Of a stretch of 64,000 bases of DNA, positions 32,356-32,780 are shown one piece after another. The notes under the pieces are model-generated. The model was not told the origin of the DNA, ran no database searches, and worked only from the letters and a program-made list of their open reading frames with translations. The first letter of the stretch is position 1. Every line of letters starts with the position of its first letter. A program made the position numbers and the translations under genes. The DNA is from a virus (Duplodnaviria; Heunggongvirae; Uroviricota; Caudoviricetes; Crassvirales). The stretch spans positions 1 through 64,000 of IMG/VR virus record IMGVR_UViG_3300020045_015898; one strand, given 5' to 3'.

Positions 32356-32780
32356 GGGGCCGCCTGGTTTTGACAATGTTAAATAAGCAATAAGATCAGC
32401 GAGAGATAACTCTAAACATAGGTGAATCATTTTAAATGACAACAATCAAGTTTCAGCCAACATGGCTACAGTAGGTTCATTACTTAACGTTAACGCTCCG
32501 GCAAGAACAATGAGAATGGCAGCATAATGAAAAACTCAACTTAATTAGTCTTGATAGATACAAGATGTATTGAATAAATAGAGATTAATTTCTATCAATA
32601 TGGCAAGAGCTGCCAATTACGTATGAGTCAATTATAATGCAATATTAATCATAAAAGCATACGCATACTTCTAGATTTAGTATTGTTTGAGAGAAGTAAA
32701 AGGCTAAATTATACGAAAGCTGTATAAATCTTATTGTTACAATTTAATTTTGGACGGGGGTTCGACTCCCCCCGGCTCCA
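32356..32780 (+). ncRNA. ssrA: tmRNA (ssrA-like), about 425 nt
   Basis: 5-prime GGGGCCGCCTGG pairs with 3-prime CGGCTCC-A; 3-prime end GGACGGGGGTTCGACTCCCCCCGGCTCCA matches the universally conserved tmRNA T-arm/acceptor; internal candidate tag ORF ending ...GCA GCA TAA (..RMAA*) at 32519-32527. Confidence 0.7.

Follow-up and report, generated by a model that had tools for sequence, protein, structure and literature searches.

Does a crAss-like phage encode its own means of rescuing stalled ribosomes and, if so, what might it do with the peptide that such a system appends? The question is raised by positions 32356-32780 (+) of a 64,000-nucleotide stretch of viral DNA (Crassvirales; IMG/VR record IMGVR_UViG_3300020045_015898, positions 1 to 64,000), referred to here as the window, where an earlier note made from the sequence alone had placed a gene resembling that of transfer-messenger RNA (tmRNA). 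From a computational analysis of this locus and its relatives we conclude, with a probability that we put at roughly 0.78, that positions 32356-32780 encode a functional one-piece tmRNA (an ssrA homologue) carried by the phage, and that this gene belongs to a lineage circulating among phages of Bacteroidota, including Crassvirales-like phages. The core of this reading, that the gene specifies a phage tmRNA, is supported by a covariance-model match, by covariation, by conservation of the tag frame and by genomic context. As a gene it is a further tmRNA of known type; what makes it interesting is its long, conserved tag.

Identity elements and architecture of the RNA

The gene is full length and measures 425 nt up to the discriminator A. 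The Rfam covariance model RF00023 matches positions 32356-32783 over its whole length (model positions 1-374) with a score of 68.4 bits (E=1.6e-24). Since the gathering score of this model is 47 bits, the match lies well outside chance, and the Infernal/Rfam check that the earlier note had proposed thus came out in favour of a tmRNA. The minimum free energy (MFE) fold of the window RNA recovers the acceptor stem, P2a, P2b and the T-arm, and its energy lies below that of all 100 shuffled sequences (z=-3.2).

The identity elements and the architecture of a tmRNA are present in this gene, all on the plus strand; the helix coordinates given here were checked base by base in the window sequence. 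The acceptor stem is formed by GGGGCCG (32356-32362) at the 5' end and CGGCTCC (32773-32779) at the 3' end, with seven pairs of which the third is the G:U pair G3:U70. It is followed by the discriminator A at 32780 and then by CAA; the gene thus lacks an encoded 3' CCA, which must be added post-transcriptionally. The T-arm, GGGGG-TTCGACT-CCCCC (32756-32772), has five of five pairs between 32756-32760 and 32768-32772. Both ends had been recognised by eye: the likeness of the 3' end (GGAC-GGGGG-TTCGACT-CCCCC-CGGCTCC-A at 32752-32780) to a tmRNA T-arm plus acceptor, and its pairing with the 5' GGGGCCG across the gene, were correctly described.

The long P2 helix joins these ends to the body of the RNA. 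P2a (32374-32384 with 32742-32752) is paired at 10 of 11 positions, with one U:U mismatch and one G:U pair; P2b (CAATAAGAT at 32388-32396 with ATCTTATTG at 32728-32736) has nine of nine pairs, and P2c (CAGC at 32397-32400 with GCTG at 32719-32722) four of four. The 3' strands of P2c and P2b together occupy 32719-32736, with a TATAA bulge between them. The first stem-loop of pseudoknot 1 (PK1) follows directly as GAG-AGATAA-CTC (32401-32412), with three of three pairs between GAG (32401-32403) and CTC (32410-32412), and this region of the window bears the lineage signature AGAGATAAC. Downstream lie an AGGTGAA box (32420-32426) that is conserved in the alignment of 26 relatives, the sequence TAAAT (32433-32437) directly before the resume codon, with U at -5 and A at -4, and the tag reading frame itself, which runs from GAC to TAA (32438-32527) by translation and by the Rfam alignment. 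The remaining positions, 32528-32718, hold the central domain in the position of PK2-PK4, where the MFE fold gives several hairpins. This domain is larger in the window than in most family members, and it aligns poorly with theirs.

We aligned the window gene with 25 related tmRNAs (26 sequences) and counted pairs in P1, P2a-c, the first stem of PK1 and the T-arm. In this alignment 95.6% of cells are paired; sliding the 3' partners by 1-3 columns lowers the figure to 40-54%, and none of 500 shuffles matched the observed value. Compensatory changes, affecting both sides of a pair, occur in 21 of the 36 pairs. They are found at 15 of 21 pairs in P2 overall (5 of 8 in P2a, 8 of 9 in P2b and 2 of 4 in P2c), at acceptor pairs 5 and 6, and at three of the five pairs of the T-arm, a helix that is paired in 100% of cells. 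All 26 members have G3:U70. The first stem of PK1 also covaries, being CAG/CUG in most members and GAG/CUC in the window and in one relative (L115), and it is extended to GCAG/CUGC or CCAG/CUGG in others. The pairing between the 5' and 3' parts of the gene, which the earlier note had named as a point at which its proposal could fail, is therefore upheld by the covariation counts.

The tag reading frame

The predicted tag is DNNQVSANMATVGSLLNVNAPARTMRMAA, 29 amino acids long (DNNQ...RMAA), read from GAC 32438 and ended by TAA; an in-frame TGA at 32528-32530 follows immediately, giving tandem stops. An internal short frame ending in Ala-Ala-stop had been pointed out before. Its ending is indeed GCA GCA TAA, at 32519-32527, but with 29 residues the tag can hardly be called short.

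Three observations fix the resume codon. The consensus resume codon of the Rfam model, GCA, is aligned to GAC 32438 of the window. The bases T78, A79 and A80 before the resume codon are invariant in all 26 aligned members, placing U at -5 and A at -4; in E. coli, U85/A86 have the same spacing to the resume codon, and it is chiefly A86 that decides which frame is chosen (PMC2481249). Finally, the homologous tag frames are open in 85 family loci, which encode 61 distinct tags. From the in-frame stop upstream (TGA 32423) up to the resume codon, the frame contains no ATG, GTG or TTG. In three members of the alignment the resume site reads AAAC followed by GG, so that no overlapping ATG exists there.

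Family tags range from 24 to 49 amino acids and start with G/D-N/K. The first residue is Gly or Asp in all 85 copies, encoded by GGC in 49, GGA in 19 and GAC in 17. The lineage has a tag core, Q[IV]xANMxxVxx[LI][LI]; the window tag opens with DNN, and its segment QVSANMATVGSLLN fits this core at every fixed position. An xAA ending is found in 57 of 60 distinct tags (VAA 33, IAA 9, LAA 7, MAA 6 and AAA 2). The ending RMAA of the window tag does differ from the host-type ALAA, as had been remarked, yet it keeps the xAA end that nearly all family tags have. With this C-terminus retained, the window tag still looks like a degradation tag.

We compared codons across the family to distinguish between constraint on the peptide and constraint on the RNA. 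Over the 14-codon core, entropy at codon positions 1, 2 and 3 is 0.63, 0.41 and 0.89, the third position being the most variable, and of the codon differences in the tag frame 39% are synonymous, compared with 15% and 6% in the two alternative frames. This codon-position pattern, which includes the codons before the conserved AUG, is that of a translated, selected peptide and not of RNA structure alone. Judged by these substitution patterns, the tag frame of the window gene is under peptide-level constraint that is conserved across the lineage. The conserved core suggests, in addition, a further sequence-specific interaction of the tag.

A phage tmRNA lineage and its relatives

The family is defined by the signature AGAGAUAAC(U) ... 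AAAC-N2-AGGUGAA ... UAA[AU][UC] before the resume codon. The window version, GAGAGATAACTC-T-AAACATAGGTGAA-TCATTT-TAAAT, is the sole variant of its type among the fetched loci. We scanned IMG/VR with a pattern for the tRNA-like domain and then with the PK1 signature, and each was found on at least 119 contigs. Hence the view that tmRNAs are rare in phages, expressed in the earlier note, does not apply to this lineage, which is also present in several isolated phages of Flavobacteriia. In bacterial and archaeal genomes (185,579 species, one genome each), an exact-pattern scan that would miss divergent copies found the PK1 signature on one contig, a 4.9-kb contig of a Flavobacteriales metagenome-assembled genome that shares its length and sample number with an IMG/VR viral contig. 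By these counts, the tmRNA lineage with the ANM tag is found almost only on viral contigs.

The fetched loci contain 85 copies of the same tmRNA type, none of which encodes CCA. Among isolates, the lineage is present in the Cellulophaga phages Calle_1-3, where it is annotated (Calle_1, MT732432), and in phi38:1 and phi40:1. It is also present in the Crassvirales member phi14:2 (L002, KC821624.1 4031-4500), where it is unannotated and lies under the small hypothetical coding sequences (CDSs) gp011-gp014; its Rfam score, 46 bits, is just below the gathering score. About 29 FpV4-like phages of Flavobacterium psychrophilum carry it as well (FpV4 is L122, KT876724.1), either unannotated or in records without annotation. 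Two metagenomic relatives of the window phage have the same tmRNA family: L178, whose terminase and portal are 47% and 43% identical to those of the window, and L198, whose ATPase is 50% identical to the one next to the window gene and lies about 4 kb from the tmRNA. In L198 an SPFH/Band_7 gene stands immediately before the tmRNA and six tRNAs follow it. A near-identity search with positions 31000-35000 of the window against phage records gave no match, and neither an ATPase-based locus search, nor window-specific DNA patterns in IMG/VR and metagenomes, nor look-ups of exact proteins revealed a close relative of the window.

Compared with one-piece bacterial SsrA, as in E. coli and Bacteroidota, the window gene has in common the G3:U70 acceptor, the T-arm, the long P2, the first stem of PK1, U(-5)A(-4), a start-less frame ending in hydrophobic-Ala-Ala-stop, and tandem stops; the UGGUUUUGAC D-analogue is shared with tmRNAs of the Bacteroidota type. 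It differs in being phage-encoded with no smpB detected beside it, in a tag of 29 rather than 9-11 amino acids, in an Asp resume codon (GAC), in the lineage-specific PK1 (AGAGAUAAC...AGGUGAA) and in leaving CCA unencoded. With the group of Calle_1, phi14:2 and FpV4 it shares the PK1 signature, the G/D-N/K start of the tag, the ANM core, the unencoded CCA and the presence of tRNA genes nearby. Nucleotide similarity to this group is only about 75-82% and limited to the two ends. The window RNA is, however, longer (425 nt), its central domain is different and its PK1 loop is 2 nt shorter, and its tag ends in the basic PARTMRMAA where those of Calle and phi14:2 end in VGV and MVA, respectively.

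Phage tmRNAs are known from mycobacteriophages, Bacillus phage G, huge phages and Calle (PMC4131195, PMC12484599, PMC7162821, PMC8776804). Those of mycobacteriophage cluster C (Bxz1-like), phage G and the huge phages are likewise borne by phages with tRNA sets and have tags unlike the host's (PMC4131195, PMC12484599, PMC7162821). Cluster C and phage G represent other hosts (Actinobacteria and Firmicutes) and other phage types than the window, huge phages sometimes carry smpB too, and a tag core of the ANM type has not been reported for any of the three. The RNA of mycobacteriophage DS6A that consists only of the tRNA-like domain is also a phage-borne ssrA derivative (PMC4131195); it keeps little beyond that domain and has been proposed to inhibit trans-translation, whereas the window gene keeps a complete coding domain.

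A further tmRNA borne by Crassvirales is that of the gut phage cr128_1, which has a central hairpin block, GATTTCTCTATTAGATTAAATAGAGTGGTGGAT, in common with main members of the ANM family such as L040. Its tag is short and host-like (GNTYRAAA), and a group I intron about 880 nt long interrupts its gene in the T-loop, whereas the window gene is uninterrupted. The cr128_1 gene (L201, MT774392.1, about 1202-2518) is unannotated. Its 5' exon begins with GGGGCATGATTTGGTTTTGA and ends with GACGAGGGTT; the intron matches Rfam Intron_gpI with 86.1 bits at 1599-1868 and has the minus-strand CDS gp_25376 inside it; and the 3' exon, CGAATCCCTCATGCTCCA, ends at 2518. Viral contigs of up to 270 kb (L008, L011, L016, L031, L048, L054 and others) also hold a second group of tmRNAs, which have a different conserved long tag, DVELSTMTFEDAMAFVGADYAVAA, followed by a stop, and an encoded CCA. 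The tag of L120, GKTIKLSETTFNDIMRQVSNVELEMAA, also followed by a stop, looks intermediate between the two long-tag types.

Phage tmRNAs have so far been regarded as oddities of mycobacteriophages and huge phages, and the searchable literature, whose coverage is partial and no proof of absence, yielded no account of the long-tag lineage or of a tmRNA in a crAss-like phage. The present comparison indicates that crAss-like and other Bacteroidota phages have their own, widespread lineage of tmRNAs, situated almost only on viral contigs. Conservation of the core at the peptide level would point to selection on the fate of the tagged protein and not on ribosome release alone. In two tractable systems, Cellulophaga with phi14:2 and Flavobacterium psychrophilum with FpV4, the lineage is unannotated; the availability of these systems makes the role of viral trans-translation directly testable.

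Origin, role and genomic surroundings

Several results weigh against a functional tmRNA in the window. ARAGORN (v1.2.41 run locally, and a second run), the other check that had been suggested, reports no tmRNA at 32356-32780. We treat this as a false negative, because ARAGORN 1.2.41 also misses 26 of 79 full-length family copies, including those of FpV4 and L178, which Rfam detects. Since this program is the tmRNA caller of the phage annotation workflows consulted and misses about a third of members, surveys based on it probably find too few phage tmRNAs. For PK1, a second stem proved elusive: the AGAGAUAA loop was matched by eye to U-rich and AGGUGA segments further downstream, and the pairing implied by Rfam was considered as well, but none of these was convincing, the candidate partners being invariant or weak in the 26-sequence alignment. 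The central domain has no close homologue with which to look for covariation. The C-terminal half of the window tag, NAPARTMRMAA, has a net charge of +1 where the lineage typically has an acidic EEV/EELE segment. The nearest tmRNAs are about 75-79% identical, and at the two ends only. In L197 and L200, the two closest ATPase-bearing relatives examined, no tmRNA occurs within 5 kb, so that not every phage of this group has the gene. Lastly, a tblastn search detected no smpB-like open reading frame (ORF) in the 64-kb window of the genome of about 97 kb, a weak test made with an E. coli SmpB query.

If the gene is a functional tmRNA, as we consider probable, it would work as follows. The RNA would be transcribed in the early/middle plus-strand block along with the neighbouring tRNAs, trimmed at both ends and given its CCA by a host enzyme. 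Host alanyl-tRNA synthetase (AlaRS) would charge it with alanine through G3:U70, and host SmpB and EF-Tu would bind it and deliver it to the ribosome; we invoke host SmpB because no smpB was detected in the window. It would then enter ribosomes that have stalled at the 3' end of an mRNA that is broken or lacks a stop codon; such mRNAs plausibly become abundant during infection. Translation would resume at GAC 32438, add alanine and DNNQVSANMATVGSLLNVNAPARTMRMAA, and stop at UAA, which would free the ribosome for phage protein synthesis and leave a tagged fragment with a degron-like hydrophobic-Ala-Ala C-terminus of the kind that ClpXP-type proteases recognise. In bacterial tags, the hydrophobic-Ala-Ala end is the part that these proteases recognise. 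A phage with at least 16 tRNAs that degrades or outcompetes host mRNA would gain from free ribosomes. Manipulation of ribosome rescue or tagging by the phage, as the earlier note proposed, thus seems plausible.

The lineage may have gone further than this, although we think it rather unlikely. Trans-translation could have been turned into phage-controlled tagging, in which the phage tmRNA replaces or out-competes that of the host, stalled products receive a phage-specified peptide, and the 14-residue core serves as a recognition module for a non-standard partner, such as an adaptor of phage or host origin, a different protease or a sensor that reads the load of stalled ribosomes. Alternatively, the RNA could be a resistant replacement that keeps rescue running when the host tmRNA has been inactivated. 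Either role would go beyond an extra supply of SsrA. Both would suit a window tag that is 3-5 times longer than the host-like Bacteroidota tags on other contigs (GENNYALAA), a core that appears to be under peptide-level selection throughout the lineage, the near absence of the lineage from bacterial genomes, and its recurrence in at least three different phage genome contexts. Long tags, however, occur also in ordinary bacterial and mycobacteriophage tmRNAs. The xAA end is kept as in ordinary degradation tags, and the window tag diverges in its C-terminal half. A tag forming an amphipathic helix was considered and rejected, the hydrophobic-moment z against shuffles averaging 0.65 in the family and being -0.39 for the window. 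When ORFs within about 3 kb of all family loci were clustered, no protein neighbour was conserved with the tmRNA across phage groups; the clusters reflect lineage-specific synteny only, none of them is common to the window, and hence there is no candidate partner.

It is far less probable that the RNA is an inhibitory decoy whose tRNA-like domain titrates host SmpB or AlaRS and thereby shuts down host trans-translation. A precedent of this kind has been proposed for the DS6A RNA (PMC4131195), and the tRNA-like domain is the most conserved part of the gene in our alignment. A decoy would, however, need neither a reading frame nor the frame-setting U(-5)A(-4), and the lineage keeps both: the mRNA-like domain is complete, and the frame is open in the 85 loci and evolves like a translated peptide.

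A non-phage origin, as a host ssrA beside a prophage, an ssrA fragment of the attP type or an assembly chimera, is very improbable. Many IMG/VR contigs with the pattern of the tRNA-like domain carry host-like tmRNAs of the GENNYALAA type, probably at prophage borders, and tmRNA genes are common integration sites (PMC4383910). The window is nevertheless a Crassvirales-like phage genome and its tmRNA is phage-encoded, not a host ssrA at a prophage border. Genes for the portal, the large terminase, the major head protein and tail fibres/spikes lie at 131-16252 (-), and the terminase is 42-45% identical to those of Crassvirales members such as cr111_1, IAS virus and the PhiCrAss isolates. A replication module is present, and the plus-strand block holds helicases, ThyX, MoxR-type and AAA ATPases, a PDDEXK nuclease and DNA ligase. 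The tmRNA gene sits mid-genome, with structural genes about 16 kb away on one side and replication genes about 6 kb away on the other. An attachment-site fragment would comprise only the 3' part of ssrA, beside an integrase at the end of an element; this candidate was rejected, because the gene is complete and lies mid-genome, and scanning of the window ORFs revealed no integrase among those covered. The PK1 signature and the tag type occur almost only on viral contigs, and a Joint Genome Institute (JGI) contig of 97,443 bp, the size of a crAss-like genome, carries an ATPase identical to the one beside the tmRNA.

Ordinary initiation, in which the frame would be translated as a small protein, for instance from the AUG of the ANM motif (invariant in motif-bearing members and preceded by the purine-rich AGGUGAA box), with the tRNA-like ends acting as a processing or stability module, can be set aside as having almost no likelihood: the codons before that AUG (Q, I/V, x, A, N) preserve their amino acids through synonymous changes (GCT/GCC/GCA, AAT/AAC and CAA/CAG), which means that they are translated, the box lies about 35-75 nt from the AUG, too distant for a Shine-Dalgarno sequence, and L115 keeps the frame without the AUG.

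The immediate neighbours of the tmRNA gene are as the earlier note had them, an AAA+ ATPase on one side and tRNA-like genes on the other. The ATPase gene (31235-32311, +) encodes a classical AAA protein (PF00004, 1e-15; phrog_2376, 5e-49), and the tmRNA starts 45 nt past its end. An SPFH/Band_7 protein is encoded at 30000-30860 and a MoxR-type ATPase at 49494-50534; we found no evidence in the window of a functional link between the Band_7, AAA or MoxR-type ATPase genes and the tag. A sigma-70-like promoter, TTAAAA-17-TATAAT, ending 20 nt upstream of the tmRNA was not used as evidence, as such matches do not exceed their frequency in shuffled sequence and Bacteroidota promoters differ.

Downstream, tRNA callers and Rfam identify three tRNA-like genes on the plus strand, at 32839-32955, 33463-33537 and 33574-33650. 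The first, 58 nt past the tmRNA, resembles tRNA-Val(GAC) and has a 44-47 nt insert beside the anticodon loop (Rfam 37.7 bits); the insert is too short for a group I intron, the acceptor stem is imperfect, and nothing like this insert was seen in the fetched loci. The genes at 33463-33537, 33574-33650 and 59070-59142 have anticodon loops of 8-9 nt, CTTCAAAT, TTTATAAAG and CCGAAAGT, respectively. The gene at 33463-33537, with UCA in an 8-nt loop, could not be assigned by ARAGORN and scores 53.8 bits with the Rfam tRNA model; it could be an opal (UGA) suppressor or a quadruplet reader. Stop codons of stop-to-stop ORFs of at least 150 aa are TAA in 30 cases, TAG in 7 and TGA in 1. Recoding was considered and rejected: reading through TGA or TAG fuses no main genes in the 64 kb, so there is no sign of it in this stretch despite the suppressor-like tRNA.

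Elsewhere in the window, a borderline tRNA match with an internal insertion at 59238-59333 (29.2 bits, the gathering score being 29) may represent one more tRNA that is interrupted or degenerate. Ten tRNAs form a compact array at 19450-20370 (-), a tRNA-Met/tRNA-Gln pair lies at 25635-25785 (+), and the tRNA-like genes of the window number 16-18 in total. The sign of the GC skew flips near 22-24 kb and near 61 kb, at the points where gene orientation switches.

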